A program made the translations under genes and the position numbers. This document shows positions 27,375 to 53,300 of a DNA stretch of 64,000 bases, in pieces (position 1 is the first letter of the stretch; the number at the start of each line of letters is the position of its first letter). The notes beneath the pieces are model-generated. The model worked only from the letters and a program-made list of their open reading frames with translations, searched no databases and had not been told where the DNA came from. The stretch comes from Eledone cirrhosa (Eukaryota). The stretch spans positions 98,084,001 to 98,148,000 of the forward strand of contig OZ024741.1 of assembly GCA_964016885.1 (NCBI GenBank). The letters are read 5' to 3'.

Positions 27375-27382
<8 letters not shown>
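27028..27382 (-). mobile_element. Fold-back element in (TA)n
   Basis: Arms 27071-27176 and 27278-27382, ~100-nt spacer and ~43-nt unpaired tail. No intact HHR core found. Confidence 0.7.
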
Positions 27383-28246: not shown

Positions 28247-28410
28247 CAATAATGATGTTAACCGGGATATTGAATCAAGTGACTATTGTGTAAAGAACGG
28301 AATATATAGATTTACCTTCTGTGTGCTTGTTTGCTGGTGTGTGTATATGAGATTATGTACCTGCTTGTCTGTATATATATATATATATATATATAACGTG
28401 TCTGTGTGTG

Positions 28411-28504
<94 letters not shown>

Positions 28505-28520
28505 CACACACAGACACGTT

Positions 28521-28564
<44 letters not shown>

Positions 28565-31829: not shown

Positions 31830-31870
<41 letters not shown>

Positions 31871-31960
31871 TTAGTTAAGCAAAACAAGACCACAGATTTC
31901 ACAAGGAAGACATTATTAAAGGATTGTCAACATATTTTAGTTTGATGCAAGGAATGTAGA

Positions 31961-32017
<57 letters not shown>

Positions 32018-32277
32018 TTTCTTTATTAACCACAAGGGTTTACATAAAGTAGACATTAAGGACAGTGCAGGACAATGCAGGACGGTACAAATGGGCATTT
32101 CTGCGTGTAAAAAAACAAAAACAGAGGATGTAACAAAAATAACAATGAAAATAACAATGAAAAATTCCCCAATAGGGGGGAGACTTCGGAGGGACATTTG
32201 TGGAGAAAGCCCAGTAAAAAGCCACAATGACCCTGACCACCAAGGCAAGTGCCCTCTCCCAGTTTTCCACCTTTAGT

Positions 32278-35200
32278 TTACAGATATATACTCAGAGTCG
32301 GCCCATTCACTCGGGCCATTCTTGCTTCTCTCACCCATCTTTCAACAAAATGCTGGGAAGAGAGCACTTCCTTCTCTACTCTGATTTTCCTTTTCAAATG
32401 AAATTTGAAAAAGTCAATCAGAGCATCACCGAAGAGGTAAGTGCTCGTCTTCAGCCCTTTCAAACGTGTCCACCATACTATCTCTTTCGCCATGGCCACC
32501 AGACAGATAAAAACTGCCTGCCCATCCCGGCTAAAGGAGGAGGGCGGGGCAATCCTCACGATGGACTCAGATGATAGCTGGATCCGTCCTAAACGCGACA
32601 GCAGGTGTTCGACATAAACCCACAAGTCAGCAATTTTCGGACACTGGACGAGTGCGTGCAGGACGGTTTCGTCGCCCTGCGCGCATCTCGGACATGCCCG
32701 GCTGACGACACCTCCATGCCTGTAGAGTTTATCCCGAACTGGCAAGGCTCCTCGGTAGCACTGCCAGGCCAGAGATTTCTGGAAGTTGTCCATAGGCCCT
32801 GGCCCGAAAGTTCTTCCGAAGAGATTGGCTAGTTGATTTTCGTCGACGCCTAGAGTTTCCCCATGTACGTCGTAGCTCTTCCCCTCCACTAATCCTCTAT
32901 AGAACGCCGAGGTGGAGTTTCCACCGATCACATTGCCCGATTGGTCGAGGGCTGTGAGCGCCTGAAGACATTCCAGTCTCCAGGCGCTCCCTCTCGGTTT
33001 TCGCTTGACCCAGGACTGCAGCTCCGTCAAGGAGACGAGCTGGGGAAAAACGCGTCTAGCAAACGGCGACCACACCTGATCACCGTCGAGGAAGAGGTGG
33101 AGATGTCGTAGCCTGAGCGCGTGCCTGCGCATCATCAGCCACGGCATGCCCAGCCCTCCACGTAGCGGGTGTTGACAACAGATGGACCGCCTGACCATCG
33201 GAGCACGTCCCTTCCACAAAAAGCGAAAGAGCAAACGCTCCAGCGCAGTCAGGCGAGGCTTAGGACAAGGTACGACGGTTAGGCGGTAGCAGATGACAGA
33301 CGCGATGTACGCGTTAGCCACCTCCGCTCGACCTTTCAGGGATAGCTTCCTCTCCGCCCATTTCTGGGTGAGAGAAGCCACCCTGCTCGTCACCTCGTCC
33401 CAGTTTTTGTCCGTCTGGAGGTCCGGACCGAACCAGACCCCTAGCAATTTAACCGGTCCGTCCGTCCAGCGCCCGACGACGCTGTTGGACGGCATGGACC
33501 TGCCTCTCCAGGTGCCGAGCTGCAGGCCCACTGACTTTTCCTGGTTGATCATTGCTCCTGTCACCGCTTCGTATTCTCTTAGTGTAGTGCCGATCGCCTC
33601 GATGTGTTTGGCGTTCGACACCACTACGGTGACATCGTCCGCATATGCTGACACGGATCTTCCGCATCCTAGTTCGCGCGGGACTCCCCTCAACGTCTCC
33701 AGTTTGTGCAGTAATGGCTCGAGAGTCAATACGTACAAGAGGGACGAGAGGGGACATCCTTGGCGGACCGAGCGCATGATGTTGAACGGTTCCGACAGGT
33801 GACCGTTCACTCTCACCACAGAGCAGATGTCGCTGTGCATGGCAGCGATCCAGCCTCTGAAGACGGGCCCAAAGCCAGCCGCCCTCAGGACTGCCGCTAG
33901 GTAACGATGGTCGACCCTATCGAAAGCTTTCGACTGATCTAAATTGATCAAGGACCCACCCGTGCCAGGTTCCCTAGCTACCCTCTCTACGATGTATCGC
34001 ATGAGGTGGAGGTTGTCGTGGATGGATCTGTCGGGAATGGCGCATGTCTGCGCCTCTCCCACCAGACCACCAACGACAAGCGCCAACCTCTTTGCTAGCA
34101 CCTTGGCCAAAATCTTAAACTCTGTGTTTAGCAGAGTTATGGGCCGGAAATTGTCTATGTTATCCCCCTTGTTCGGATCCTTTCTCAGCAGTGCCACCGC
34201 TCCTCGGCTCACAGAACTGGGAATTCTCCCGTTCTGTTGCCAGTTGCAGTAGACGTCCGCCAAGAGGCCTCCGAACAAGTCTGGCATCTGTACGTAAAGT
34301 TCATAGGGCAGACCATCCAAACCAGGCGATTTACCCCTTGTGCAGCCAGTCATTGCCTCCCGTACTTCAGCGGTTGTTATCGGCTTTTCGCAACACTTCG
34401 CCTCAGTGGCCGAGAGCCGCGGCAGTCCGTCGAGGTAGACACTAAAGTCCATCCCTCTACCCGGCCCCCCGCTGCCCCCGAACAGCTGAGCGAAGTGTCG
34501 CTGAAAAGCTTCACACATTTGCCCGGGATCGAGTAGCATGCGCCCGTCGTGGTCCACCAAAGACCGGATCGTGGCTTTGTTGCCACGACGCGCCTCCGCC
34601 ACTCGGGCCCATTGAACGGCTTTCGTCCCCTCGTGTCTGAGAGCACGCACCCTAGCTCTGACAACGCAGCCTTCGTGCTTTGCATTGAAGAATTGGTCAA
34701 GGGCCAATTTCGCCGCAAGCACGTCGGTCGCAATGCCTTTGCTAAGCGCCTCGTCTAATTTTCTAACTAGTTCTCCCTCTGCTCTATTTTTCTCTATTGC
34801 TAAAGCCTTACTAAACCTAATCGATTCTATTCTAATCGCTCTTTTCAGAGCAAACCACCACTTGTTGTTGACGATGGCCCCCGTCAACGCCCGCTTAACT
34901 AGTTCGCTAATCCGGTCTCTGTAGGCCTTGCGCGCTGGTAAGGACGCGTTTAGCTTCCAGTAGCCGGGTCCTCGTCTATGAAGCCTATCTAGGTCAAGCA
35001 CACACATCACGAATTTGTGGTCCGTGTAGCTGACTATCTTGAATTGTGGACAGCCTATGCTAGACCTATCTATTTCCTTACAAAATACTCTATCTAGATA
35101 TGATCTGGATGACCCTATGCGGTTTGTCCAAGTCCACATTGGCACATTCGGGAAATCCAATCGGTACCTGTCAGACAGTTCAAAACGCCTGAGCAGGTTG

Positions 35201-35697
35201 GTGAGGCTCTTGCACCCTCCACCCCTATCCGCTAATCCCACACAGTCCCAGCGTGCATCTAAGATCCCGTTCCAGTCGCCCACTAACACTAAAGAGCGGG
35301 ACGTTCCAAGAAAGGTCTCCAGACGCCGGAAGAAATCAGGCCGCCCTGCTCCTGTCGGGGCATAGACGGCCACTAGCCTGAAAGCTTGCCCGTCTCCGCT
35401 GGTCACGTCCAGCACCACCAGCTTACCCTCTGGGTCCAGGAAGATGGCCCGTATGGCGAGATCCAAACCTCTCCGAAAAAGCACAGCAACTCCTCCACCC
35501 GATCCAGGACGGCTGGGAGATGCGTACACATCGTAGCCGCCGAATATCGGTGCGAAGGCCCGTGCTTCGGAGATTCTGGTCTCGCTGATGGCCACTACAT
35601 CTATGTTTAGTGACCTGAGGTCGTTGAGCAGGTGACCCTGCTTCCATGACGACCCCAAGCCACGCGCATTTATGCTGCCTATTCTGAGTGAGGTCAT
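32278..35697 (-). CDS. ORF2p: APE endonuclease + reverse transcriptase + CCHC zinc finger (1139 aa)
   Basis: SINARGL, SETR, VYAP, GDWN, YLDR, TDH (APE); KSPGLDG, FRPITLLN, DQSKAFD, VRQGCPLS, YADD (RT); CPRC..ETVLHALVQC. Confidence 0.95.
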   Translation of the reverse strand: MTSLRIGSINARGLGSSWKQGHLLNDLRSLNIDVVAISETRISEARAFAPIFGGYDVYASPSRPGSGGGVAVLFRRGLDLAIRAIFLDPEGKLVVLDVTSGDGQAFRLVAVYAPTGAGRPDFFRRLETFLGTSRSLVLVGDWNGILDARWDCVGLADRGGGCKSLTNLLRRFELSDRYRLDFPNVPMWTWTNRIGSSRSYLDRVFCKEIDRSSIGCPQFKIVSYTDHKFVMCVLDLDRLHRRGPGYWKLNASLPARKAYRDRISELVKRALTGAIVNNKWWFALKRAIRIESIRFSKALAIEKNRAEGELVRKLDEALSKGIATDVLAAKLALDQFFNAKHEGCVVRARVRALRHEGTKAVQWARVAEARRGNKATIRSLVDHDGRMLLDPGQMCEAFQRHFAQLFGGSGGPGRGMDFSVYLDGLPRLSATEAKCCEKPITTAEVREAMTGCTRGKSPGLDGLPYELYVQMPDLFGGLLADVYCNWQQNGRIPSSVSRGAVALLRKDPNKGDNIDNFRPITLLNTEFKILAKVLAKRLALVVGGLVGEAQTCAIPDRSIHDNLHLMRYIVERVAREPGTGGSLINLDQSKAFDRVDHRYLAAVLRAAGFGPVFRGWIAAMHSDICSVVRVNGHLSEPFNIMRSVRQGCPLSSLLYVLTLEPLLHKLETLRGVPRELGCGRSVSAYADDVTVVVSNAKHIEAIGTTLREYEAVTGAMINQEKSVGLQLGTWRGRSMPSNSVVGRWTDGPVKLLGVWFGPDLQTDKNWDEVTSRVASLTQKWAERKLSLKGRAEVANAYIASVICYRLTVVPCPKPRLTALERLLFRFLWKGRAPMVRRSICCQHPLRGGLGMPWLMMRRHALRLRHLHLFLDGDQVWSPFARRVFPQLVSLTELQSWVKRKPRGSAWRLECLQALTALDQSGNVIGGNSTSAFYRGLVEGKSYDVHGETLGVDENQLANLFGRTFGPGPMDNFQKSLAWQCYRGALPVRDKLYRHGGVVSRACPRCAQGDETVLHALVQCPKIADLWVYVEHLLSRLGRIQLSSESIVRIAPPSSFSRDGQAVFICLVAMAKEIVWWTRLKGLKTSTYLFGDALIDFFKFHLKRKIRVEKEVLSSQHFVERWVREARMARVNGPTLSIYL

Positions 35698-35732
35698 GTT
35701 TAAAATAGAGTGGAAAAGATGGGAAAGACCAC

Positions 35733-37829
35733 TTACCGTACTTTTGGTAGAGGAGGGATGGTTTTTACATCCCTTTTCACTTGATCGTCTGGTGAAGGGA
35801 CCGTTGAATCGTCCCTTCGGCTGGTCGTCGGCTCTTCTAAGAGAATGTCTGAATATACTCTTCGATTGATGGTTCCTCCTAGGTCCCTGAAATCACCAAC
35901 TGCGTTGGGGAATTTCGTTTTAATGTTTGTGTAATGTTTCTGTGCTATTTTTAGCAGTCTTATGTTAGTTGGCGTTTTGATTGGTGCTGGTATTATGTAG
36001 TCCTGTTGTGAAATGTCTGTGTGTTCAATTATGTAAGTCATTAGTTTCTTGTTGTGTGTATTTATTGCCGTGCATTTGTTTTTCTGGGGGTGGGGTGTGG
36101 TTCTGCTATTTTCTTGTCGTTGTTGCTGGGTGTGTGTGTTTTGTTGTTGTGTTTGCGATGTTGGTGCTTGTGGTGGTGGTGTTGAAGGTGTTGTTGGCGG
36201 TGGGGTTGTCGCCGGTGGTGATGGTGGCGCTAGTGTGGGTGGTGATGGTGTTGGTGTTGTTGCTGCTGTGGGTCTCTTTGCAGTAGACTTTACCCTTTTC
36301 TCATTTCTCTCCTCCCTTTTCAAAGGCGACGATGCGCTGCTTCTGCGTTTGTGCCTTCTTACGACCTTTTGCCATCTCTCTCCCACCTCACACTCCATGT
36401 CTGATTCTGTGAGGTCGGGGAGGGGTACCAACTCCACTCTTTCACTTGTTGTTGTTGGTGATGTTTGCACTGGAGTCTCTGTTGCAGCTGCATTTGGTAT
36501 TGCTGTTGTTGTTGTTAGTATTTCCACTGCTGCTGCTGTTTTTGATTTCCGTGGAGTGGGTATGGGTGCCACGGGCCTATCGTTCCTGGTTGCCGCTTGT
36601 CCTGTTGCTGGTAGCCGTGGAGCCGGATTCGGAAGGAGGGGGGTTTTCTCCTTTCTCAGGGTCTTCTCGTTGCAGAAGGCCCTGAGGTGAGTCTTCGATC
36701 CACAGCGAAAGCATTTCGGGCGTTTGCCCTCAACACTTATGGGCAGTTGAGTGCCGTTATCGAAGTCTATCACATCCGGGATAGCTTCGATGCACTCCTG
36801 GTTGGTTTGGATTAGCATCTCAATGGAGGAGCCGACCCAATCTTCTCTTACTTTTTTCTGTACTTGCAGTACAGTTGTTTTGTCCTCGATTCCGACGAGG
36901 ACAGACGCGGCCAGCCAAGAAGGGGTCATTCCGGGGGGGACGTGGGTCAGTTTGACCCTCACAATTTTTTGCCCACAGTAGGAGGGCACCAACACCATTT
37001 CCTCGCTCCTTAGGGTCACTACTGATTGGGCCTTTGCCTCCTGGGGTGTGGCAAAAAGTACGTCTACGGTGGCATATTTTTTGCCTCGGGTGATGTGCGT
37101 TTTCCGCTGCCACACAGACCCCAAGGCTTTTTGTATTTGGGCCTCTGTGGCTCTTTCCACCCTACGGGATTTTGTACTTACTGTACGGTACGTGACCGTA
37201 CAGTGCTCTTGGGTTTCGAAAAAATGTTTCGCTGCCTTGCAGATTGCTCGGTGTCCGTTCTTTGTCACCATCTTCTTCGCTTCCTCTAATTCCTCATTTG
37301 TTATGAGGATTGTTTCCAAGTTTTTCGCAATACCTGCAAATGAGATTGGTTTTTCTCTGCTGTTGTTGTTGTCGTCAGAGCTGCTGGTACTTTTGTTGTT
37401 GCTGCAGGTACTACGACTACTGCCTCCGCCGCTGTTGCTGTGGTTGTTGTTGGTGTTGCTGCTGCTAATGCTGTTGTTGTTTATGCTGCTGGTGATGCTG
37501 TTGCGGCTGCTACTGTTGTTTTCATTGTCACTGTTGCTGTTGTTATTACGGCTGCTACTGCTATTATTCCTGACGTCAGACGAATGAACTGGGTTTTCGT
37601 ATTTCCCGCACACCTGTTTCGTCGCTGTCGTCGTCGTCGTGGAGAAACCTTGCACGCTTTGCACGAGACTTTTCTTTTCTTTCGTCACTTGCGAAAGAGA
37701 AGGGAGGGAGAGAGACACATTTAAAGAAGGGAGGGAGAGAGACAATCTTCTCTCTGCTGTAGTGATGATTGAGGAAGAAGAAGACGGAATGAGTGGGAGT
37801 GACGTATGAAATTTCTTTTTCGTAGCCAT
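35733..37829 (-). CDS. ORF1p, gag-like nucleic-acid chaperone (698 aa)
   Basis: Zinc knuckle CFRCGSKTHLRAFC, an upstream RRM-like region and low-complexity linkers. Confidence 0.88.
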   Translation of the reverse strand: MATKKKFHTSLPLIPSSSSSIITTAERRLSLSLPSLNVSLSLPSLSQVTKEKKSLVQSVQGFSTTTTTATKQVCGKYENPVHSSDVRNNSSSSRNNNSNSDNENNSSSRNSITSSINNNSISSSNTNNNHSNSGGGSSRSTCSNNKSTSSSDDNNNSREKPISFAGIAKNLETILITNEELEEAKKMVTKNGHRAICKAAKHFFETQEHCTVTYRTVSTKSRRVERATEAQIQKALGSVWQRKTHITRGKKYATVDVLFATPQEAKAQSVVTLRSEEMVLVPSYCGQKIVRVKLTHVPPGMTPSWLAASVLVGIEDKTTVLQVQKKVREDWVGSSIEMLIQTNQECIEAIPDVIDFDNGTQLPISVEGKRPKCFRCGSKTHLRAFCNEKTLRKEKTPLLPNPAPRLPATGQAATRNDRPVAPIPTPRKSKTAAAVEILTTTTAIPNAAATETPVQTSPTTTSERVELVPLPDLTESDMECEVGERWQKVVRRHKRRSSASSPLKREERNEKRVKSTAKRPTAATTPTPSPPTLAPPSPPATTPPPTTPSTPPPQAPTSQTQQQNTHTQQQRQENSRTTPHPQKNKCTAINTHNKKLMTYIIEHTDISQQDYIIPAPIKTPTNIRLLKIAQKHYTNIKTKFPNAVGDFRDLGGTINRRVYSDILLEEPTTSRRDDSTVPSPDDQVKRDVKTIPPLPKVR

Positions 37830-38044
37830 GTTGTTTTTTGTTTAAAATGAAATTTTGGGTACAAAACCACAATAACTGATTATTTAACCCCGAAGGGCCA
37901 AATAACGGACAGAAAGACCCCTCTCACGAGGAGGAGGGTGTCTTTATCAACAATTTGGTTCAAGTTTTAAACAATTTACGATTGTTTTAACGGTTAAAAA
38001 TTACTATACCTTACAGAGCCGAGCCTCCGTCAACCATGGCATTC

Positions 38045-38081
<37 letters not shown>

Positions 38082-38323
38082 TTTTCTTTATTAACCACAA
38101 GGGTTCACATAAAGTAGACATTAAGGACAGTACAGGACAATACAGGACGGTACAAATGGGCATTTCTGCGTGTAAAAAAACAGAGGTTGAAATAAAATAA
38201 CAAAGAAAAATTCCCCAATAGGGGGGAGACTTCCAAGGGACATTTGTGGAGAAAGCCCATTAAAAGACCACAGTGGCCCTGACCACCAGGGCAAGTGCCC
38301 TCTCCCAGTTTTCCACCTTTAAT

Positions 38324-41300
38324 TTACAGACACATACTCAGAGAAGGCCCATTCATTCGGGCCATACTTGCTTCTCTCACCCATCTTTCAACAAAATGCT
38401 GGGAAGAGAGCACTTCCCTCTCTACCCTGATTTTCCTTTTCAAATGAAATTTGAAAAAGTTAATCAGGGCATCACCGAAGAGGTAAGTGCTCGTCTTCAG
38501 CCCTTTCAAACGTGTCCACCATACTATCTCTTTCGCCATGGCCACCAGACAGATACAAACTGCCTGCCCTTCCAGGCTAAAGGAAGAGGGCGGGGCAATC
38601 CTCACGATGGACTCAGCTGATAGCTGGATCCGTCCTACACGTGACAGCAGGTGTTCGACATAAACCCACAAGTCAGCAATGCTCGGACACTGGACCAGTG
38701 CGTGCAGGACGGTTTCGTCGCCCTGCGCGCATCTCGGACATGCCCGGTTGACGGCACCTCCATGCCTGTAGAGTTTATCCCGAACTGGCAAAGCTCCTCG
38801 GTAGCACTGCCAGGCCAGGGATTTCTGGAAGTTGTCCATAGGCCCCGGCCCGAAAGTCCTTCCGAAGAGATTGGCTAGTTGATTTTCGTCGACGCCTAGA
38901 GTTTCTCCAAGTACGTCGTCGCTCTTCCCCTCCACTAATCCCCTATAGAACGCCAAGGTGGAGTTTCCACCGATCACATTGCCCGATTGGTCGAGGGCTG
39001 TGAGCGCCTGAAGACATTCCAGTCTCCAAGCGCTCCCTCTCGGTCTTCGCTTGACCCAGGACTGCAGCTCCGTCAAGGAAACGAGCTGGGGAAAAACGTG
39101 TCTTGCAAACGGCGACCACACCTGATCACCGTCGAGGAAGAGGTGGAGATGTCGTAGCCTGAGCGCGTGTCTGCGCATCATCAGCCACGGCATGCCCAGC
39201 CCTCCACGTAGCGGGTGTTGACAGCAGATGGACCGCCTGACCATCGGAGCGCGTCCTTTCCACAAGAAGCGAAAGAGCAAACGCTCCAGCGCAGTCAGGC
39301 GGGGCTTAGGACAAGGTACGACGGTCAGGCGGTAGTAGATGACGGATGCGATGTACGCATTCGCCACCTCCGCTCGACCTTTCAGGGATAGCTTCCTCTC
39401 GGCCCATTTCTGGGTGAGAGAAGCCACCCTGCTGGTCACCTCGTCCCAGTTTTTGTCCGTCTGGAGGTCTGGACCGAACCAGACCCCTAGCAATTTAACC
39501 GGTCCGTCCGTCCAGCGCCCGACGACGCTGTTGGACGGCATGGACCTGCCTCTCCAGGTGCCGAGCTGCAGGCCCACTGACTTTTCCTGGTTGATCATTG
39601 CTCCTGTCACCGCTTCGTATTCTCTTAGTGTAGTGCCGATCGCCTCGATGTGTTTGGCGTTCGACACCACTACGGTGACATCGTCGGCATATGCTGACAC
39701 GGATCTTCCGCATCCTAGTTCGCGCGGGACCCCCCTCAACGTCTCCAGTTTGTGCAGTAATGGCTCGAGAGTCAATACGTACAATAGGGACGAGAGGGGA
39801 CATCCTTGGCGGACCGAGCGCATGATGTTGAACGGTTCCGAAAGGTGACCGTTCACTCTCACTACAGAGCAGATGTCGCTGTGCATGGCAGCGATCCAGC
39901 CTCTGAAGACGGGCCCAAAGCCAGCCGCCCTCAGGACTGCCGTTAGGTAACGATGGTCGACCCTATCGAAGGCTTTCGACTGATTTAAATTGATCAAAGA
40001 CCCACCCGTGCCAGGTTCCCTAGCTACCCTCTCTACGATGTATCGCATGAGGTGGAGGTTGTCGTGGATGGATCTGTCGGGAATGGCGCATGTCTGTGCC
40101 TCTCCCACCAGACCACCAACGACAAGCGCCAACCTCTTTGCTAGCACCTTGGCCAAAATCTTGAACTCTGTGTTTAGCAGAGTTATGGGCCTAAAATTAT
40201 CTATGTTATCCCCCTTGTTCGGATCCTTTCTCAGCAGCGCCACCGCTGCTCGGCTCACAGAGCTGGGAATTCTCCCGTTCTGTTGCCAGTTGCAGTAGAC
40301 GTCCGCCAAGAGGCCTCCGAACAAGTTTGGCATTTGTACGTAAAGTTCATAGGGCAGACCATCCAAACCAGGCGATTTACCCTTGTGCAACTAGTCATTA
40401 CATCCCGTACTTCAGCGGTTGTTATCGGCTTTTCGCAACACTCCGCCTCAGTGGCCGAAAGCCGCGGCAGTCCGTCGAGGTAGACACTAAAGTCCATCCC
40501 TCAATCCGGCCCGCCACTGCCCCCGAACAGTTGAGCGAAGTGTCGCTGAAAAGCTTCACACATTTGCCCGGGATCGAGTAGCATGCGCCCGTCGTGGTCC
40601 ACCAAAGACCGGATCGTGGCTTTGTTGCCACGACGCGCCTCCGCCACTCGGGCCCATTGAACGGCTTTCGTCCCCTCGTGTCTGAGAGCACGCACCCTAG
40701 CTCTGACAACGCAGCCTTCGTGCTTTGCATTGAAGAATTGGTCAAGGGCCAATTTCGCCGCAAGTACGTCGGTCGCGATGCCTTTGCTAAGCGCCTCATC
40801 TAATTTTCTAACTAATTCTCCCTCTGCTCTATTTTTCTCTATTGCTAAAGTCTTACTAAACCTAATGGACTCTATTCTAATTGCTCTTTTCAGAGCAAAC
40901 CACCACTTGTTGTTGACGATGGCCCCCGTCAACGCCCGCTTAACTAGTTCGCTAATCCGGTCTCTGTAGGCGTTGGGCGCTGGTAAGGGCGCGTTTAACT
41001 TCCAGTAGCCGGGTCCTCGTCTATGAAGCCTATCTAAGTCAAGCACACAGATCACGAATTTGTGGTCCGTGTAGCTGACTATCTTGAATTGTGGACAGCC
41101 TATGCTAGACCTATCTATTTCCCTACAAAATACTCTATCTAGATATGATCTGGATGACCCTATGCTATTTGTCCAAGTCCACATTGGTACATTCGGGAAA
41201 TCCATTCGGTACCTGTCAGACAGTTCAAAACGTCTGAGCAGGTTGGTGAGACTCTTGCACCCTCCTTCCCTATCCACTAATCCCACACAATCCCAGCGTG

Positions 41301-41746
41301 CATCTAAGATCCCGTTCCAGTCGCCCACTAACACTAAAGAGCGGGACGTTCCAAGAAAGGTCTCCAGACGCCGGAAGAAATCAGGCCGCCCTGCTCCTGT
41401 CGGGGCATAGACGGCCACTAACCTGAAAGCTTGCCCGTCTCCGCTGGTCACGTCCAGCACCACCAACTTACCTTCTGGGTCCAGGAAGATGGCCCGTATG
41501 GCAAGATCCAAACCTCTCCGAAAAAGCACAGCAACTCCTCCCCCGATCCCGGACGGCTGGGAGATGCGTACACATCGTAGCCGCCGAAGATCGGTGCGAA
41601 AGCCTGTGCTTCGGAGATTCTGGTCTCGCTGATGGCCACTACATCTATGTTTAGTGACCTGAGGTCGTTGAGCAGGTGGCCCTGCTTCCATGACGACCCC
41701 AAGCCACGCGCATTTCATTTATGCTGCCTATTCTGAGTGAGGTCAT
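38324..41746 (-). pseudogene. ORF2 of copy 2 with several frameshifts
   Basis: cattt duplication at 41711-41720 and indels near 41540, 40501 and 40385 split the frame. Confidence 0.9.
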
Positions 41747-41780
41747 GTTGAAAAGGAGTGGAAAAGATGGGAAAGACCAC

Positions 41781-43750
41781 TTACCTTACTTTTCGTAGGG
41801 GAAGGACGGCTTTTCCATCCTTTTCACTGCTTGTGGCCTCCTCAGGAAGGATGTCCTTATAAATTCTCTTGGAGAGTGCTTGTCGGAAGTCTCCGATGTC
41901 TTTGGGGAATTTTTGTTTTAGTGTCATGTACGTTTTCTGTTTGATGCGAGTGATTTGTATGTGTGGAGGTGGTGTGAATTTTGGGGTTGTTGTGTAGTCT
42001 TTTTCTGTGATGCTGGTGTTGTGTTGGATGTAGTGTAATAATTGCTTGTTGTTCAAATTTAATGCTGTGTAGTGTGTATCGTTTTGGTTGTTTTGTTTTG
42101 TTTGCGTTTGTTGTGGGTTTGTTTCTGTTTCGCATTTTGGTGACTTTTGTGGTGTAGGTGATGGTGATGGTGTTGGTGTTTGGGTTGATGGGGTTGGTGA
42201 TGCTGGTGTGGATGGTGGCATATCTGTCCTAACTTTTTTGTTTCTTAGTTTATTTGTTTCCCTCAGTATTTTGTTTTTGGAGGGGGAAGGAAGAGAATTT
42301 TTTCTTTTTTGGTTTCTTTTTTTTTTCCGGATATCGTTTCCCACTCCACGTCGTCACAATCTGTCTCCAGTTGTGATAGGCCGGGGAGTGGAAAATCCTC
42401 CACAGCCGTTAGTTTTGGTTGTGGTGTGGTGGATGGTGTAGGCGCTGGTGCTAGTTCTGAAGCGTTGGGTGGTGGTGGTGTTGGTTTTGCTGGTGGTGGT
42501 AGTGGTGTTGGTTTTGCTACTGTTGCTGGGGTTGTTGCTGTTATAGTTGCTTCTGTTGTTGCTGCTACAGTTTTTGCTGCCATCTCTGCTACTGGTGGTG
42601 TTGATGGTTGTGTCACTGGGGTGGGTAGGAGAGGTGGCCTCAACCTTTTAGCCTGAGGGCAGAAAGCCCTTAGGTGGGTTCCTTCACCACAAACGACACA
42701 CCTAGGTCTTCTGCCCTCGACAATTACCGTGAGGTGGCTGCCGTCAGTGAGGTCTATTACCTCTGGGATCTCCTCAATGCTTTTTTGGTCCGCTTGGATT
42801 AGGAGCTCCATCCCAGATCCGGACCAGTTTTCCTGCTTTTCTTTTGCTACTGCTATTATTTTCGTGTTGGCTTCGATGCCGGCGAGGACAGCCGCTATTA
42901 GCCAGGGAATTTCGATGGCCGGTGGAACGTGGGTCACCCTGATCTTTACGAGTCTCTGGCCACAATAGCTTGGGACGAGTGTGAGGTCGTCACTTTTTAA
43001 TGGGGCCATGGAGTGTTCTCTAGCCTCCTCTGGTGTTTCAAAGAACACATCCACGGTTCCATACTTTTGCCCACGTCTGATGTCGGTTTTTCTTGCCCAC
43101 ACATGTCCCAAAGCTTTTTGGATTTGGGACTCGGATGCCCGTTCCACTCGGCGCGATTTTACATTTATTGTTCTATACGACACGGTGCACAGGCGCCGAT
43201 GCTCCATTTTATTAGGTGGGGGGTGAGGCTGACCCTGTACCCATCTTTCTTTACCATTTGTTTGGCATTTTCTAAATCTTCTTGAGTTACCGTGAACGCT
43301 TCGAATTGTTTTGCTACGATGGCGAAACTGAGGGTCGGTTTTATAATGTCATTGTTGTTGTTGTTGCTATCGTTATTTGTGTTAATATTAATTTTAGTTT
43401 CAGTTGTGGTGGTAGTGACGTCAGTCGTCTTTGGTGTGGAAGAGTCCATTTTGCTTAATTTCAATTCGACATCACGAGTTAATTTATTTTTTTCTTCTTT
43501 TGTTTCTGTTGTCGCGGTGGTGGTGGGGTGGTGGTTGTCGCGGTGGTGGTGGTGGTGGAGGCTTTAACATCTGCAGTCATTGGTAATGGCGGGAAATGAA
43601 TGTCTGCCTGAGACAAATTTAAAATATTGCTACTGCTTATATTTTTTTTGTGTTGGCAAACGTAGTAACATTTACAATGGTGGTGTCGGTGTGAGGTGTT
43701 ATTTTGTGAGGAAGGCTTTCAGCTGCTTCGAGCAGAGGGGAATTAGCCAT
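41781..43750 (-). pseudogene. ORF1 of copy 2, frameshifted
   Basis: Pieces 43637-43750, 43165-43464, 42263-43207 (CVVCGEGTHLRAFC) and 41781-42344 (ends KVR*). Confidence 0.85.
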
Positions 43751-43957
43751 TTTTTTCAAAGAAATTTTTGGATAATAATAAAAGTTAAAATTTTGGGCAC
43801 AAGGCCCCAATCTTTTTGGGTGTCCTTTTCGGAAAACAATGTATGTGTGCTTATAAACAGTTAACAATAAAATTTTCCATAAATGGCAATTTTTAACAAA
43901 CGGAAATAACAAACCTTTGCGGAGCTCACGATGATACGATTTACTACGTAGGTCGCC

Positions 43958-43991
<34 letters not shown>

Positions 43992-43994
43992 TCC

Positions 43995-44113
43995 GTTTAC
44001 AATTGTTTCGCTACTCCATATAATATTTCTGGATCAAATGATTATATATCATTATTGATCTGGTTCAGTTGAAAATAATTAACTTAGATACAATTAGAGC
44101 GGCTCATCGGAAC
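43995..44113 (-). ncRNA. Hammerhead motif (U4C, long stem II), pLTR copy 1
   Basis: Mirror of 45565-45683. Confidence 0.7.
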
Positions 44114-45564
44114 TTCAAAAGGAATATAAATTAAAATAAAGAAAGAATGTTACATAAATTTAATGTTCCATATGTTGGTATTTCACTATGGTGTCCTGGG
44201 TATATAGTGGAGCAGTATTCTTCTCTCGAGGCTGCATTGTGTGAGATCTCCCTATGGGTAACACGATGGAGGTCAATGGACATATTTACCTTACTAATTA
44301 GAGGGTGGTTTCAGGGGAAGTAACTCCTCGAGAAATTAGAAATTGTGGGTAGTTTATAGTTAAGAAGTGCTAATTTTTTTAATTTTTTAATTGAGAGACA
44401 ATGTAAGGGAGGTAACTTATAATTATGTAAGTTAGTTATAGCTATTTAACTTATTAGCTACAAGTAAAAATGGGGCTAGATGACTATGTTGGATCAACTA
44501 TTCTGTTGGCGAAGGAATTAGCCCTTCGATGTGAACAGCTAATAGTTACCTCCGTTCTATCGTTAATCGGTAGAGGTCGTGATAGAGTTATGTAATATGC
44601 TTCGGTAAGACAGAGGTCACAAGTGTTTCTTCGTCCCTTGAACGGTTGGGCCCCAGCTAAGATATCCCATGTTAGTGAGTGTTCAATGTTGGTTAATTTA
44701 AGGTTTTTAATGAGCCTAGCTAGAGATGTCGAACATATGTTGTTAGGGTCTCGGAAGGAAAAAGAGTGCGCGTTATAGCGTACCTTAAAAGGGTTAGAGG
44801 TAGAAGCGATATAGGAGCTGGTATGCTAAGCAGTTTTAACTGTGCACCTATAAACTATATTGGGCGTCAGGCAATGTCCATTTAGTGGGCATGGATTAGG
44901 GTAACGGCAGTTGCAGTTACTTCTGCGGTTAGTGAGAGTAGGTTTTTTGAACTAAACGGTTGGTCCGTGTAAGAAGGATAAGATGGGGTAGGTGTGCTAC
45001 TAGAGTAATTATTGGTGTAGTGGCGTGGTGTATTTGATGGGGGTCGTGGTACCGCGGTGTGGGAGTTATACTGTCTTAGCTTATGATGGTTACTGAATAC
45101 GATGTGGCTAGCTAGGTTAGGTGTTGTGGAGAATGATATTTTAATGTTGCTTTTATTAAAGAGTTTGTAATATCTATGGATGGGGGGCATGTTTAGGTAG
45201 GATAGAGAAGAAGCGTTTAGGGATATTAGTGGCTAGATTAGATGATAATGGGGGGGGTTAAGCCAGGTGATATTTCTAGGCCTATTCCTTCTAGGGGTTC
45301 TAGTGGAGATGGCAGGGGACTTCATAGGGTTATTATTACCTGGGCATTTGTTATTTGTCATCCCATTGCTCATTCCTATTCTAGGGTTGATTTTTAGTTT
45401 GCTACTTTGAGTGGGAAGCCACCATTAAGGTTCCCTGTAAAATTACGGCGAATCTGGCTATATGCTAAGGTATTTCTAGTTCTAGTGTTAAGTTTATTAT
45501 GGTTGTGGTGTAGGGCTGTTTCATGTAACATTCTTTCCTTGTTTTAATTTATATTCCTTTTGAA

Positions 45565-45683
45565 GTTCCGATGAGCTGCTCTCATTGTACGTAAGTTAAT
45601 TATTTTCAACTGAACCAGATCAATAATGATCTATAATCATTTGATCCAGAAACGTTATATGGAGTAGCGAAACAATTGTAAAC
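45565..45683 (+). ncRNA. Hammerhead motif (U4C, long stem II), pLTR copy 2
   Basis: gtt-CCGATGA-gctgctct...(~78 nt)...ggagtagc-GAAA-caattg-TA^aac. Confidence 0.75.
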
Positions 45684-47272
45684 GGACATTAATATTATTA
45701 ATATTATTATTATTATTTTCTACATTTCTTACATCAAACTAAAACTATGTTGACAATCTTTTAATAATGTCTTCCTTGTAAAATTTGTGGTCTTGTTTTG
45801 CTTAACTAATGAATATTTCCAGCTCTGTGCACCTAACCTCTGCATGAACCCAGCCACCTAGCTGCCTTCCACTGCATATTGCACATTGAACACATGACTT
45901 TACGCTTTGGCTTCTAACTAATTCACGAATCTCTCTTCTCCTCTCCTATCTCCATCTCTCTCTTTAAGATTTGTTAATCTTGAACTGTGTATACTTGAGC
46001 TTACGTAGTTGCGCTATCTACTGTTAGAATTCACCATGTTGAGCAAGCAAGAACTCAGGATATCACTTAAGTCCATTCCTATCCCACACAGGAAGACATA
46101 CCTCAAACTCCTAATACAGAGTGTCAACTCTTTCATCCGAAGAATACGATGGAAGGCCTTCCACTTCGACCGTGCGCGTGCTGCTGACGCCGGAAGTACA
46201 GCAAACAGATATGGATTTACCACCGGCAAGAACCCTCCACACAACATCCTGCTGGACCCCTTTGAGAAAGATCTATTCAACTTCGACAGGACCATTAAAT
46301 TCAAAAAGCATTATAGACACAAGAATAATTTCCTCACAAAATTAGCAACATCTATAAAAAAATTTAAAGATAGCCACCTCTTACATGTTATGTCTGACAA
46401 AACTAAACATCTATACATCATGACTCCTGAAACTTACAACTCTTTCCTTCTTAAGGTATTTAATAAAAACTATTAAAAAACTATACCCTCCAGTGTAAAC
46501 TTACTTAACCGAAAAGCCCAGGCTTTGGTTAAGGACTTGCATCTGGATAGATTTACCCACCCTTATGTACCTACAACCCCAAGGTTTTCTCTCAAGGATC
46601 ACAAGCCAAACTTTATAGAGAACCCATCTATTAGACTTATAAGCCAAACCACATCTGACTTGGGTCGTATCAGTAAGAACATCCTAGTAATATCACCTGG
46701 CTTAACCCCCATTCTCATCTAATCTAGCCACTAATATCCCTAAACGCTTATTCTCTATCCTATCTAAACATTACCCCCCCACCATAGACATTACAAACTC
46801 TTAAATAAAAACAACATTAAAATCTCATTCTCCACAACACCTAACCTAGCTAGCCACATCGCATTAAGTAACCATCATAAACTAAGACAGTATAACTCCC
46901 ATTTTTACTCATAGCTAATAAGTTAAATAGTTATAGCTAACTTAGATAATTATAAGTTACCTCCTTTACATTGTCTCTCAATTAAAAAAATTTAAAAATT
47001 AGCACTTCTTAACTATAAACTACACACAATTTCTAATTTCTCGAGGGGTTACTTCCCCTGAAACCACCATCTAATTAGTAAGGTAAATATGTCCATTGGC
47101 GGCTATCTTGTTACCCATAGGCAGATCTCACACAATGCAGCCTCGACAGAAGAATACTGCTAAACTATGGCAGACAATAGATATACCAAGGACACCATAG
47201 TGAAATAACAATACATGGAATATTACATTCATGTAACATTCTTTCTTTATTTTAATTTATATTCCTTTTGAA

Positions 47273-47391
47273 GTTCCGATGAGCTGCTCTAATTGTACGT
47301 AAGTTAATTATTTTCAACTGAACCAGATCAATAATGATCTATAATCCTTTGATCCAGAAACATTATATGTAGTAGCGAAACAATTGTAAAC
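47273..47391 (+). ncRNA. Hammerhead motif (U4C, long stem II), pLTR copy 3
   Basis: Same motif as 45565-45683. Confidence 0.7.
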
Positions 47392-47396
47392 GGAAC

Positions 47397-47466
47397 GGAG
47401 TCGATAAAATAAGGTACCAGTAATAGACTGGGTAATTGCTGGCCTTATGCCAAAAAGTAGAAACAA
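47397..47466 (+). mobile_element. 5'-truncated SINE inserted in the (ATT)n of a pLTR
   Basis: gtcgataaaataaggtaccag...ggccttatgccaaaaagtagaaac-aattattatt. Confidence 0.8.
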
Positions 47467-47605
47467 TTATTATTAGTAGTATTATTATTATTTTCTACAT
47501 TCCTTACATCAAACTGAAACTATGTTGACAATATTTTAATAATGTCTTCCTTGTGACATTTGTGATCTTGTTTTGCTTAACTAATGAATATATATATATA
47601 TATAT

Positions 47606-47798
47606 ATAGGAGTAAGTAAGACCCCGACGGCTGAGCTCAAGCCGTTTCGACGGCTAATTCTGTACTGAATTAGCCGTCGAAACGGCTTGAGCTCAGCCGT
47701 CGGGGTCTTACTTACTCCTATTACCCACTCTACTACCCTAAGTATTGAGTACTTTGGTGCGTTATGGTCCACCTGGTTCCTTACCACTTTTCCTTCGC
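47606..47798 (+). mobile_element. Mini fold-back: perfect 55-bp arms, 6-nt loop, 77-nt tail, in (TA)n
   Basis: 47606-47660 is the mirror of 47667-47721. Contains the 3' half of an HHR: GAA-acggct tgagctc agccgt-C^gggg. Confidence 0.8.
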
Positions 47799-48551
47799 TA
47801 TATATATATATATATATATACTATATATATATTTAACGAAGGGTAAATAATGAAATGTTAGAAAAGATATATGTGGTTATTTAGATATGTGATAATAACA
47901 AAGTATAATAGGTATAGGTGTAATGACGAGAATATAAGTATATAAAGAATACTAAGAATAAATGATTTGGTTATATATTGTTTACTTCACGTGAATGAAT
48001 TAAACGGTACAATAAACAAGTTACCATAAGTTGTAAAGATTGACAATATTACTTTGCTGTTGATCTGAAGGCTGTTGTAGTCTGTTGTTGTTGGTGTGAA
48101 AACAGTGAGCGACAGATAATTGTTTTTGTTGTTGGATTTCAGAGAGAGTGGTAGTAGTTGTGAGACCGTGTTAGTAAGAGAGAGAGAGATATGGTCTGTA
48201 GTAACCGAGAAATACCGTGAACTGCATATAGCGATGAATCTTCTACATTTGTGTTCTGTATAGCAGGGTTCCAATCGCTCTGGGTGTCTCTGAAGACATG
48301 ATGGGGTCTGTTGAATAGTGGTGAATCTTTACATAGCTTGTTGTTGGTGAGGTGCTCCGGTGTCTCTGTCTGTAGACCCTTTGGGTCTATTGATAGCAGT
48401 ACATTCTTACATAGCTTTTTATGTAGTGCATATTGTACATTGAGCACATGCATATACGCTTTGGCTTCTAACTAATTCACCAATCTCTCTTCTCCTCTCC
48501 TATCTCCTCTCCTATCTCCATCTCTCTCTTTAAGATTGGTCAATCTTGAAC

Positions 48552-48623
<72 letters not shown>

Positions 48624-48628
<5 letters not shown>

Positions 48629-48985
48629 TATTAAATTAACAATGGTTTATTTTATTATTGTTTTACGATGAAGACGGTCTGATCGAACCTATATATGAGG
48701 TCTGATAGTATACAGTTATATAACTGTTATAGATCAAACAATATGTTAATATGATCGGCCCTCCGAAACGATCGTAAAACAATGATATGAACAGGTAAAA
48801 TAAATTGAATTTGTTGTTTTTATTTTCATTGTTAATTTAATACATAATACTCCGTATATAAGGAATTAAATCAGTGGAACACAGAACTTCTCTATGGATT
48901 TCACTGGATTACTCGCCATTGGATTACATTGATTTCTATCTAAGGTACGGACCCTACCACCAGAGGTAGACCACACTGAAAAAAA
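48624..48985 (+). mobile_element. Mini PLE derivative: short inverted arm + HHR (48668-48783) + tail
   Basis: (A)TGAAGA-cggtctgatc...gatcggcc..-GAAA-cgatcg-TA^aaacaat; the tail starts cataatactcc. Confidence 0.65.
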
Positions 48986-49494: not shown

Positions 49495-50353
49495 TAATAA
49501 TAAATTTCAAGACTAAACTTTAATCTGTTATTTTAGTAAATATATATATATATATATATATACATATACACATATCCTGTGGATGTTCGTTTATTTGTCG
49601 CTTATTCCGGTGATGAGCATTCAGTTATTTCATTGTTCGAGGGTATTCCTACATGGATGATAATTCCACAGAGACGTGTATCCACAACATGTCTCTCCCA
49701 AGTCGACCCAATTTCTTTCACAAAGCTACGGTAAAAGTATTTATTCAGGATGTCTTTTAATGTATATGGAGCATAATCCTTAATCATTCATTTATTGCCC
49801 CAGAATATTAGAATGTAGAAGTTTTCCAACGCAGTGTCACGACTATGTTTCATTTGCCCTGCTGATTTCAACTTATTTTTGGTTCTATTTTCGAATATAA
49901 GTATCTAATATAGAAATGGCTACTAGAAGTGTCTCATTCGGAAAAAATCATCGGGATAGCCCTTTCCTGATAGGTTCTCCTGAATGAAACAATTCTAGTC
50001 CTGTAGAAGCCAATCCTATATTATATATATATATATATATATTGATTTGAACACAACTTTGAACATTTTATAATTTATTTATAATTTATTTATATACTTT
50101 TTTAACATAAAAACAGGTAGAATTCCCAAAACTAATCAGATCAGAGCAAACAACACGGACACTCTATCTCAAAATTATTTTTGAAAAGCATTTAGAAATG
50201 CGCAACCGGTAAAAACTTAAAACCAAAACTGAATACTAACCAATCCAATTACTAATACTCTTTTATTCCTAATTAGACTATTTTTCAACTGTGAACAATT
50301 TGTCAGCATTTTCTATTCCGTTTACCAATATATATATATATATATATATATAT

Positions 50354-53300
50354 CAACATTTCAACCATCCTCTTACGGAATCACCTATATAACTCACCCA
50401 CACACACAACCAAAAAAATGTTTTTCTCCCACACGCCACCTACACCCACAGCACGCTTAAACCCCACGCACACGTGCTTTCCACCACATATTTACAGCCT
50501 CAGCCTCCTGATTCCTCTCCCCCCGCCCCTCTATCCACACACGCACAGACACTCCGACCTACAACCCCCCCCCCACACCTCTTCCTGAGCATGCAACCCC
50601 GTTCTTCCCCCGGCCCTCGCTTTCACATACACACACACACACACACTACACCTACACACACACACCACCTTCAGCCCTCCCCGCTCGGACACCCCGTCTC
50701 CGTCTCCCCACTCCACCCGCCACCACCCCTACACACCCCACACCCTTCCACCACCTGTTTTACCCCTTTTTAATTTAAGTTTATTTTGATCATGCTTTTA
50801 TATTTATTTTTATTTCATTCCTTTTATTTTGATCATGCTTTATTTTTATTTTTATTTTTAATTTCATTCTCACCGTTTCCTTTCGCTATATGTCTCTCCA
50901 CCACTCCCCAACACACCCTTTGAACCCTGTTCCCACACACTTCTCACCTGAGGAAGGGCTTATGCCCGAAACGTCGTTCCCTACCACCACCCCACTCTCC
51001 AGAGCGTGAAATTAATAAACATTCGTTGTACTGCCTCTCTGTTTTGTTCCTGTTCAAATTTTTCCATTATATATAATACACGCCATTACGGCTTCCATTC
51101 CTTTGGAACATAACTTAACTACCGGCTCAACCCCGATCTAATCCGCCGTGACAATTCTCCGAACTTTACACACCTTCCCGCACTTGGTCTTTCCTTCCAC
51201 GCATTACCTTTGTTTGATTTTGTTACTGTACTTGTTTATTTCCGTATATGATTCTTTGCCTGTGTTCTTACAATTTTATTTCTATGATTTTTTGTTCACG
51301 ATTGCCTGTGTTTTACCTTTATGATTTTTTGTCTTTAATTTTCCTGTGTATGCTCCCCCCTCCTTACGTTTTTCTGTTTCATTTTTCCTTCCCCGTCTCT
51401 GCCTATCCTGCGCACTCACTCCTTCGTTCACTCCACCCCGCTTCACACCCCTGCTTTCTCATCCCCCCCCCTGCTTTCACCCAACGCCCACCATGCCCAG
51501 CCTGAGATCCTTTCTCCACCAACTACATAATCGCCTCAAACTTTTCCTCACCCCCTTCCTCCCACCCTGCTATCACCCCTCTGCCCTTCAACTCTCCTAC
51601 CTCTCTTCGCCAAAACCCGGCACTCCAGCCACATCCATTTCCTCAGCCACTGCCTACGCCTCCACCTTATCCCCCTCGGCTTCCGTCTACACTTCCACCC
51701 TTCCCCCGCCACTTCCCCCTCACGCAACGTATCCTCACCCGATCCTCACGCCTCCTGATGCGCAACTCCATCCGCGCCTCCCGTTCCACCCTCCGCCAAC
51801 TTGACAATCAACTGACCCCCACCCTCCTGCGCCTTAACTCCACCTGCCACCCCCTTCTCGCCCAAGCCATCATCTCCTTCATCCAAAACCTCAACCACAA
51901 CCTCTTCTCCTTCCTCAGCTCCACCAAAGCCCGCAAGCTACACTCATCCTCCCAACCACCCTCATCCACCACCACCCGCCCATCCCCATACGCCCACCAC
52001 TCTCCACCTCTCCCTCGACCCACACCCCTACCCAATCTCCACCCTCCACCTCACCCCTCACCCCCCCACACACACAAACCCCACCACTTGTTGTCACCAT
52101 ACCCCCTGACCCCCCCCTCTCCGCACCTGAGCGCTCACTCCTTAGTAGAGACCTTCGCTTCATACCCCACACTCCGCACAGCGACGAGTTCCGCACCCGA
52201 ACGGAAGTCGAGCGATTCGTGCGACGCACTAAGCTACAGGCACATTTCGGCCGAACGCCACCGGCTCCGGACGCCCCGGACCCGTTTCTCGCCCTGGGCC
52301 GACGACCATCTTCTTGGACGCCGGCCCCAGGGCAATTTAGCACCCTGGACGCGTTCGTCGATGCCAGCCGTAGCGCAGTAAATCGTTTCGACTTCCGCCA
52401 CCGTTCCAAACGGTACAATATCTCACGGGGCGAACTCCTCGTTCTCCGCTCCCTCCGTAGCCGAGATGACATCGTCATCAAACCGGCGGACAAGGGAGGC
52501 GCCGTGGTGGTGTGGCGCGCGGACCTCTACACGGCCGAAGCCCTCAGGCAGCTCTGTAACCCCCTCTTCTATCGCCCTCTACCCTCCGATCCCACGCCCC
52601 TCTACCAACAACAAGTCTCCTCCACCATCCAAGACCTTATCGCATCCTCCCCCCCCCCCACCGCTTCCCACCTCATCGTCCACATACCCCGCACCCCCAC
52701 CATCTACTTCCTCCCCAAACTCCACAAACCCGACAACCCCGGCCGCCCCATCGTCTCCGCTTGCAACTGCCCCACCGAACTCATCTCCGCCTTTCTCGAC
52801 TCCATCCTCGCCTCCCTTGTCACCACCCTCCCCTCCCACATCTCCGACACCAACCGCGCCCTGCTCCTTTTCGACTCCTTCACCTACCCACCCGGCCCAC
52901 AGCCCTTCCTCTTCACCCTAGACATCAAGTCCCTCTATACCGTCATCCCCCACGCCGACGGCCTACGCACCCTAAAACACTACTTCGACCTTCGCCCCTC
53001 CCCCATTCCCTCCACCCCCACCCTCCTTCGCCTCGCCGAGCTGGTCCTCACCCTCAATTGTTTCTCCTACTTGGGTGTGTTTTACCAACAGGTCACGGGG
53101 GTAGCCATGGGTACAAGAATGGGCCCGAACTATGCCAACCTTTTTGTTGGCCATGTTGAGGCCCAAATCTTTGCCCAGTACACCGGCCCCACGCCCGAAC
53201 TGTACGGTCGTTACATTGACTACTGTATCGGAGCCACGACCCTCACCCGAGAACAGCTCGACTCCTTTCTCTCCTTCTTCTGCTCCTTCCACCCCTCCCT

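Follow-up and report, generated by a model that had tools for sequence, protein, structure and literature searches.

This analysis concerns a 64-kb stretch of Eledone cirrhosa DNA (contig OZ024741.1, positions 98,084,001 to 98,148,000; hereafter the window), in which two long interspersed nuclear elements (LINEs) of Tx1-like type, named TxA and TxB, and a short interspersed nuclear element (SINE) are inserted at an ATT repeat in the pseudo-long terminal repeats (pLTRs) of an old Penelope-like element (PLE). The reading that we favour, with somewhat better than even confidence, is that the elements are drawn to a short word, AC|ATT(A), where an ATT tract begins, a target rebuilt by each insertion, the pLTR being passive and its hammerhead-like ribozyme motif a bystander. 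The SINE was probably mobilised by a member of this Tx1-like lineage, because the 3' ends of SINE and LINE share a covarying hairpin. Published work is cited throughout from excerpts of the papers.

Self-BLAST and alignment bear out much of the initial annotation of the locus. The minus-strand pLTR copy 1 is interrupted between 43991 and 31961, exactly at its repeat, by two head-to-tail 6-kb LINEs, which are parted by a 12-unit repeat. The repeat reads (ATT)n in the sense of the elements, both LINEs lying on the minus strand, and the element-sense junctions are AC(ATT)11, AC(ATT)12 and TC(ATT)18, compared with 10 interrupted units in copy 2 and 9 in copy 3. Copy 2 is empty, with an interrupted tract of 30 nt, and the predicted cut site lies about 7 nt from the repeat, as had been described: the first base of the 3' product in copy 1, 43997, is 7 nt ahead of the tract. 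The SINE in copy 3 is indeed truncated and in the same relative orientation, but it stands at the 5' edge of the tract instead of inside it. Likewise, both LINEs are full length as claimed, but the copy beside the ribozyme motif is dead and the two belong to different subfamilies. Perfect AAT or ATT runs of at least 12 nt number seven in the 64 kb, and the three that exceed six units are all at LINE junctions. A looser scan of the window gave six ATT-like tracts, five at these pLTRs or junctions and one in plain AT-rich DNA. By inspection, it is not credible that two independent LINEs landed by chance in tracts of ~30 bp within 64 kb.

Six copies of the SINE are present in the window, five of them outside the pLTRs; target duplications are clear in three of these five (18/18, 21/23 and 14/16), weak in one (7/9) and absent in one, so that over all six copies three are clear, one is weak and two are absent. 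Every SINE with a target duplication starts at C|ATYA (4/4), and three of the four start at AC|ATYA, a word found also at the pLTR tract edge and at the 3' junction of TxB. There are 110 ACATYA sites in the window, and 27 of the stricter form ACATYAWT. The earlier claim of an (AAT)n-specific Tx1 is kept in part: a target preference is backed by the (ATT)n 5' flanks, but it is best read as a preference for the short word AC|ATT(A). The four long SINE copies contain what we take to be a B-box-like word, and ARAGORN reported no tRNA genes.

The link between SINE and LINE is a small 3' hairpin with a CUNGU loop. Ten matches were returned by a search for YUKGU loops with three or more closing pairs, compared with a shuffle mean of 2.3 (maximum 7, 30 shuffles), and eight of the ten lie at three LINE 3' ends, at three SINE 3' ends and in the 5' UTRs (untranslated regions) of TxA and TxB. 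When 11 ends were aligned, all 33 cells paired, all three pairs changed on both sides, and the covariation score was reached in none of 500 shuffles. Relatives with 41% identity yield 39 distinct 3' junction strings; the hairpin is present in 38 of them, and the remaining one is cut off. The letters of the SINE stem-loop are identical to those of a distant Tx1-like relative, where they are also found in a second family (L031). Over the last 30 nt, all six SINEs match the older LINE of the window in register (p 0-0.007, 1000 shuffles). The SINE has a 3' end in common with a LINE and a conserved stem-loop, in a comparison that covered the LINEs of the window and their distant relatives. From these sequences we hold it to be rather more probable than its opposite that the SINE is a tail-sharing partner of a Tx1-like LINE, a pairing not found in the published work searched.

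Stringent SINE/LINE pairs, among which are L1-clade pairs of maize and sorghum with a shared 3' stem-loop (PMC3747384), are alike in having a short shared tail, a variable stem with compensatory changes and a conserved loop. They differ in that the passages of PMC3747384 that name Tx1 include no pair with a Tx1 partner, and in that the motif here is present in the LINE 5' UTR as well. The 3'-end hairpin recurs 30-45 nt ahead of the ORF1 (open reading frame 1) start in TxA and in TxB, whose 5' UTRs are unrelated in other respects; the two 5' UTR hairpins show a compensatory change, and CAAAATTT comes next in both.

In the favoured model, an old, decayed PLE carries ~10 ATT units just past its hammerhead motif, and the preferred site of a Tx1-like lineage would be the short word AC|ATT(A), ideally where an ATT tract begins. 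The ORF2 protein (ORF2p) may bind the CUNGU hairpin, nick the AAT strand at the tract edge and prime there, presumably aided by the likeness of the RNA end to the target. TxB would enter first, duplicating or extending the tract, and its 3' end together with the repeat would rebuild the site, which TxA could then use, giving the head-to-tail pair. The SINE would borrow the LINE machinery through the shared hairpin, and would therefore have the same but looser preference, copy 3 being struck once in six copies. The pLTR would be no more than the carrier of a good site.

Several observations weigh against this model. There are just two LINE insertions of the TxA/TxB family, both at one locus, and the target word was defined post hoc. 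An ATT tract is present at 2/2 copies of TxA/TxB at this single locus, when the yardstick in PMC4494074 is one sequence type in >20% of genome-wide flanks. DNA rich in TA comes after the older relative, and junctions vary among the distant arrays, which means that the ATT preference is not shared by the whole lineage. Copy 1 holds 41 ATT units in total compared with ~10 in the other pLTR copies, which is more than two simple duplications of 11-12 units, and therefore slippage or added repeats would also be needed. The SINE in copy 3 is without a target duplication and has a short repeated ACGGA at its 5' junction. As for the hairpin, its stem counts just 3-4 bp, and the structure was derived from the 11 aligned rows themselves, which are related to one another. 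The match of the SINE tail to TxA and TxB themselves is weak (p 0.013-0.39 in shuffles), and the partner of the SINE would therefore be an older or different member of the lineage.

TxA is the intact copy of the pair. Its ORF2 contains the Pfam domains Exo_endo_phos, RVT_1 and zf-RVT, its best solved-structure match is L1 ORF2p, with 181 bits versus 78 for R2, and ORF2 similarity places it in the L1 group. The ORF1 product has no Pfam match above the cut-off, and its Atlas features score 0.91-0.93 to clusters of CCHC/ZCCHC3 type. Elements of the Tx1 clade have an ORF1 with an RNA-binding domain and a CCHC knuckle, and no poly(A) tail; in TxA and TxB a CX2CX4HX4C knuckle is visible in ORF1 and poly(A) is lacking. 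Tx1 is the best label for the two by sequence, in a tree whose rows hold no named Tx1 reference. The endonuclease hairpin of TxA has the L1 length, two residues less than the loop of the LTX chimera; loop length was tried as a Tx1 marker and dropped as L1-like and uninformative. The closest named animal match is a protein of Argonauta hians, 58% identical, and L1-Tx1 families have been recently active in Octopus vulgaris (PMC13282606, Table 1).

TxB, which adjoins the ribozyme motif, is dead though full length: its ORF2 has three small indels and one stop, and its ORF1 is in pieces. TxA and TxB are ~96% identical in ORF2 and ~55% identical in the 5' UTR and ORF1. Per 250-column window of their alignment, identity is 39-63% over the first 2.2 kb and 95-99% across ORF2, and the best ORF1 block has 56% protein identity. 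The ratio of nonsynonymous to synonymous differences (pN/pS) in ORF2 is 0.18 over 1135 codons, indicating purifying selection. Judged by these comparisons, the two are sister subfamilies which were inserted separately. A local tandem duplication of one LINE was ruled out because of this pN/pS and the contrast in identity between the 5' part and ORF2, the 5' halves being unrelated as DNA and the ORF2 differences mostly synonymous. TxB probably came in first and TxA second, because TxB has decayed while TxA is intact. Each LINE carries its own 5' UTR of ~210 nt, and plain folding gave no evident ribozyme-like fold shared between these two 5' UTRs.

More distant relatives were obtained by scanning a contig collection with the ORF2 alignment, which gave 45 loci, 40 of them from record set CAXXMW01; the CAXXMW01 loci overlap, have a single source and are not independent samples. 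All but one of them encode one ORF2 type, 40-43% identical to TxA, which forms a clade with TxA and TxB with a Shimodaira-Hasegawa (SH) support of 100 (FastTree, 35 rows, a set that omits 15 of 46 near-length matches). These relatives stand in head-to-tail order with a spacing of ~6.4 kb, and one ORF2 type (35/36 loci) is joined to 12 clusters of 5' module. Contigs of up to 94 kb (L001-L038, L041, L043) are made up for the most part of such 6.4-6.8 kb LINE arrays, unusual in kind, in which ORF2 is nearly identical and the 5' modules are of at least 12 types. Since the arrays share ORF2 and differ in their 5' modules, tandem stacking and the exchange of 5' modules appear to be habits of the lineage. 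No ATT or AAT tract of at least four units is present in 472 kb of overlapping relative loci. The CAXXMW01 records, filed as a bacterial metagenome-assembled genome, are likely eukaryotic repeat DNA present as contamination. A telomeric location of the arrays was ruled out by the absence of telomere-like repeats from the 45 relative loci, and an Rfam scan of eight loci gave no families in the seven array loci among them. Two further features of the relatives were noted. A second covarying hairpin follows the CUNGU hairpin in the CAXXMW01 relatives, and in L039 (3036-3199 and 9961-10137) two U1 small nuclear RNA (snRNA) genes flank a 28%-identical LINE, a possible snRNA-array target.

The relatives bear on two other explanations of the locus. 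One dispenses with endonuclease specificity: the element's own (AUU)n tail would anneal to nicked ATT-like DNA, as tail-to-target annealing is known for other LINE clades, and the SINE would belong to another LINE (RTE or CR1/L2), its hairpin being convergent. The right tract is the longest (18 units), the total goes beyond simple duplication, ATT- or ATC-like bases come directly after every SINE copy, and octopus has active RTE and CR1 LINEs (PMC13282606, Table 1). We consider this account rather unlikely, as the older LINE copy has no ATT tail, the tract of copy 3 is no longer than that of the empty copy 2, and in SINEs with exact duplications the ATT bases are part of the duplicated target; convergence is opposed by the letter-for-letter identity of the SINE stem-loop with that of the distant Tx1-like relative. 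For similar reasons the repeat cannot be read as merely a self-encoded tail, the outcome that would have undone the initial annotation: the 5' flanks are (ATT)n too, the terminus of the older relative runs into TA-rich DNA, and the distant relatives have no such tracts, which also rules out a lineage-wide (ATT)n tail. The other explanation is that TxB and TxA arrived as a read-through dimer, or that TxA targets the 3' end of its kin regardless of ATT, leaving a single pLTR event. The lineage does make long head-to-tail arrays without a microsatellite, but TxB has several lesions and TxA is intact, which points to two ages, copying of the full 12 kb is improbable, and an ATT tract is present at all three junctions; we rate it very unlikely.

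A more specific dependence on the host element was also weighed, in which the LINE/SINE pair targets the pLTR of this PLE and uses its promoter, with or without ribozyme trimming. In its favour, three of eight insertions of the pair in the window sit in the tract of this pLTR, all in ribozyme sense, and Tx1 families that target other transposons are known, with flank-driven transcription proposed for SINEU (PMC4494074). Two independent pLTR insertions among seven, with 110 ACATYA sites competing, give p ~0.014 by hand; the stricter ACATYAWT, with 27 sites, gives p ~0.18, and the window was chosen for this insertion cluster. Given that choice and the dependence of p on the word, it is not established that insertions favour the pLTR over and above the short word. 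Moreover, the upstream context of TxA is TxB, not the pLTR, and both LINEs have a 5' UTR of their own. We regard this reading as unlikely. Its premise in the initial annotation, a PLE-borne target as such, is not shown, since five of the six SINEs lie elsewhere and the window offers no free ATT tract for comparison, five of its six ATT-like tracts being at pLTRs or junctions. A broader version holds that the LINE and its tail-sharing SINE parasitise PLEs genome-wide through the ATT tract, using the pLTR promoter and the ribozyme, with CUNGU recognition at both ends and swapping of 5' modules; the PLE would tolerate the insertions because the tract possibly lies in a 5' UTR intron. It is, if anything, a shade less probable. 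A putative pLTR promoter that drives TxB is possible.

The ribozyme part of these proposals can be judged from the motif itself. Custom scans located a hammerhead-like motif in all three pLTRs, in which stem II is long, loop III is a 4-nt palindrome and the predicted cut falls 7 nt before the tract. Rfam, searched over the whole window with E up to 1, gave 128 weak matches, with no hammerhead or other relevant family among them. Core position 4 is C in all three copies, which departs from the canonical type I core (C3-U4-G5-A6-N7-G8-A9 / GAAA / NUH). The U4C change is a natural variant of much lower activity in vitro which still allows viroid infectivity (PMC3088659), and hammerhead motifs of PLE type act poorly and as dimers (PMC4209133). 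The copy 1 motif is the most damaged of the three, having failed a stem filter that copies 2 and 3 passed. As the sole pLTR copy on its strand, copy 1 has no same-strand dimer partner, which a short palindromic helix III would need. A forced hammerhead fold lies 5-8 kcal/mol above the free fold, 5 kcal/mol in copy 1. A 59-nt intron inside loop II was considered and rejected, as its acceptor is weak and the hammerhead fold was not favoured even with the intron skipped. The predicted cut in copy 1 would leave a 40-nt leader on TxB, and TxA lies 5.9 kb further on, behind the AAUAAA of TxB. In a lizard PLE, insertion did not require the ribozyme, which needed protein in order to cleave and whose cut site coincided with the end of no RNA-seq read (PMC11167929). 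Given the U4C core, the mismatch in stem II, the missing same-strand dimer partner and the dead adjacent LINE, a role of the ribozyme in LINE expression is unlikely, and the suggestion that it trims read-through transcripts is not supported, for only the dead TxB would be trimmed.

Further hammerhead-like motifs with a long stem II and a palindromic loop III lie at 22068-22177 (+), 48660-48780 (+), 26850-26950 (-), 57680 (-) and 57939 (+), making eight motifs in the window versus 0.5 expected. Core position 4 is C in two of these as well, at 22068 and 48660, which suggests a shared variant among the PLEs of this genome.

The closest precedent, by analogy, is the crocodilian Tx1-Mar LINEs and SINEU in Mariner-N4_AMi, where sequential tandem insertions sandwich the target duplication (PMC4494074). 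In both systems a Tx1-type LINE and a SINE occupy one site of an older transposon, and expression from the flank was proposed there. The host is Mariner-N4 in crocodilians and, here, a PLE pLTR in which the site is the edge of a microsatellite. SINEU combines U1/U2 heads with a poly(A) tail and is tied to Tx1 through shared targets, no LINE with the 3' end of SINEU-1 being given in the cited text of PMC4494074; the SINE and LINE described here share a 3' hairpin, unlike SINEU. The preference shown by Tx1-Mar and by SINEU was measured genome-wide, whereas that of TxA and TxB was read from one 64-kb window. Kibi, Koshi and the crocodilian (TTCC)n and (TTTC)n Tx1 families (PMC4494074) are likewise LINEs with an apurinic-endonuclease-type (APE-type) domain and microsatellite targets; the repeat unit here is ATT, and the tree has no named reference for the comparison. 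Xenopus Tx1 in Tx1D is a LINE nested at a fixed site of another transposon (PMC4494074), in which the target is a DNA transposon and the loop of the LTX chimera is two residues longer than that of TxA. Dong, of the R4 clade, targets TAA repeats. It resembles TxA and TxB in the repeat chosen and differs in its restriction-like endonuclease, single ORF and clade.

Tx1 preference for microsatellites and transposons, tandem stacking and a SINE at the same target are already described. In the published work searched, a scope that leaves out Repbase Reports and most subscription literature, there was no (ATT)n-specific Tx1, no Tx1 in a PLE pLTR and no SINE with a Tx1 3' tail; the excerpts of PMC4824008, PMC4758252, PMC4640811, PMC10088271, bioRxiv 10.64898/2026.07.22.740005 and PMC7265360 held nothing that alters the reading. 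Nesting of this sort is usual in the clade; what is worth following is the intact element and the shared hairpin. The locus adds a probable ATT-edge target, an intact element with an assayable endonuclease, and a minimal covarying 3' hairpin which ties SINE and Tx1-like LINE together and persists down to 41% ORF2 identity. Together, the hairpin and TxA would allow a direct test of RNA recognition in the clade and offer a candidate driver for an abundant cephalopod SINE. PLE-specific targeting or ribozyme use, if true, would be a new kind of dependence of one transposon on another, which the evidence does not favour.

Features of the Eledone cirrhosa locus (window coordinates)
Positions	Strand	Feature	Basis
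17722-18339	-	3' fragment of older related LINE, 55% amino acid (aa) identity to TxA, same terminal hairpin, then TA-rich DNA	
31864-31961	-	pLTR copy 1, downstream half, (TA)n at end	self-BLAST, alignment
31962-32015	-	(ATT)18, right junction	
32016-38044	-	TxA, LINE, 6029 bp, intact, Tx1-like, younger insertion	
32028-32040	-	TxA 3' hairpin, 4-bp stem, CUUGU loop, directly ahead of AAUAAA	
32278-35697	-	TxA ORF2, 1139 aa, APE endonuclease, reverse transcriptase (RT), zf-RVT; catalytic motifs present	
35733-37829	-	TxA ORF1, 698 aa from Met, CX2CX4HX4C knuckle, RNA-binding-like region	
37858-37868	-	TxA 5' UTR hairpin, UUUGU loop, 3-bp stem	
38045-38080	-	(ATT)12 between TxB 3' end and TxA 5' end	
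38081-43957	-	TxB, LINE, 5877 bp, full length with frameshifts and stop, differing 5' UTR/ORF1, presumably older	
38093-38105	-	TxB 3' hairpin, loop as in TxA	
43795-43807	-	TxB 5' UTR hairpin, CUUGU loop, stem covaried relative to TxA	
43958-43990	-	(ATT)11, left junction, native to pLTR copy 1, GGAC before it	
43991-44158	-	pLTR copy 1, upstream half	self-BLAST, alignment
43995-44113	-	Copy 1 hammerhead-like motif, U4C core, a single mismatch in the long stem II, loop III palindromic, predicted cut ahead of 43997	
44159-45519	-	Inverted 5'-truncated PLE body, decayed GIY-YIG-like C-terminus at 44487-44951	
45520-45816	+	Empty pLTR copy 2; cut of its hammerhead-like motif predicted ahead of 45681; tract (45688-45717) interrupted	
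45817-47227	+	PLE 5' region and decayed, internally deleted ORF, ATG 46036	
47228-47591	+	pLTR copy 3, holding the SINE fragment; cut of its hammerhead-like motif predicted ahead of 47389; tract at 47466-47492	
47395-47465	+	5'-truncated SINE, 71 nt, 5' edge of copy 3 tract, ends in hairpin and A-rich tail	

Self-comparison of the window shows the host to be one Penelope-like insertion bounded by (TA)n runs, in which an inverted, truncated minus-strand copy (45519 down to 31864) adjoins a plus-strand pLTR-ORF-pLTR unit (45520-47591). Such a partial tandem with an inverted copy has been described for PLEs (PMC8557442). Endonuclease-positive (EN+) PLEs with pLTR hammerheads (PMC4209133, PMC8557442) are alike in these tandem and inverted, 5'-truncated copies, in the palindromic loop III and in the (TA)n flanks; the present PLE differs in a stem II insert of ~85 nt, in C at core position 4 and in its decay. 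The halves of copy 1 are 92-96% identical to copies 2 and 3. The ORF is decayed and internally deleted, and with only 92-96% identity among the three pLTRs the PLE must be old. Four ORF fragments gave no Pfam matches and the N-terminal piece has no homolog at E 1e-5, while the Atlas score of the C-terminal fragment is 0.93 to a cluster in which GIY-YIG proteins make up 15%.

A candidate intron of 378 nt (45591-45968, +), spanning the 3' half of the ribozyme motif and the ATT tract, would run from a GTAAGT donor (45591) to a pyrimidine-rich AAG acceptor (45968). This pair of sites suggests a 5' UTR intron of the PLE, as a lead only; it can be likened to the 398-bp intron of Chlamys-3 (PMC8557442). 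The donor is altered in pLTR copy 1, and the acceptor region is found again at 48427-48556.

A second, better preserved PLE-like element lies at 50348-55892 (+), with 735-bp direct repeats, 95% identical, that flank an 805-aa RT/GIY-YIG-like frame (51838-54255); a third copy of the repeat is at 4371-5203. Long, near-perfect (TA)n palindromes are present at 16333-16626, 18381-19471, 22524-22680, 27071-27382, 27493-27650, 28389-28525, 47606-47721 and 57596-58023, of which at least the last bears hammerhead half-motifs and may be a PLE fold-back remnant. A truncated LINE frame with zf-RVT at 59547-61214 (+) is unrelated to TxA by tblastn, and its C-terminus is presumably of restriction-like endonuclease type. 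Unclassified recent dispersed repeats, 93-99% identical, pair 7593-7867 with 9106-9381 and 21236-22438 with 55903-56976.

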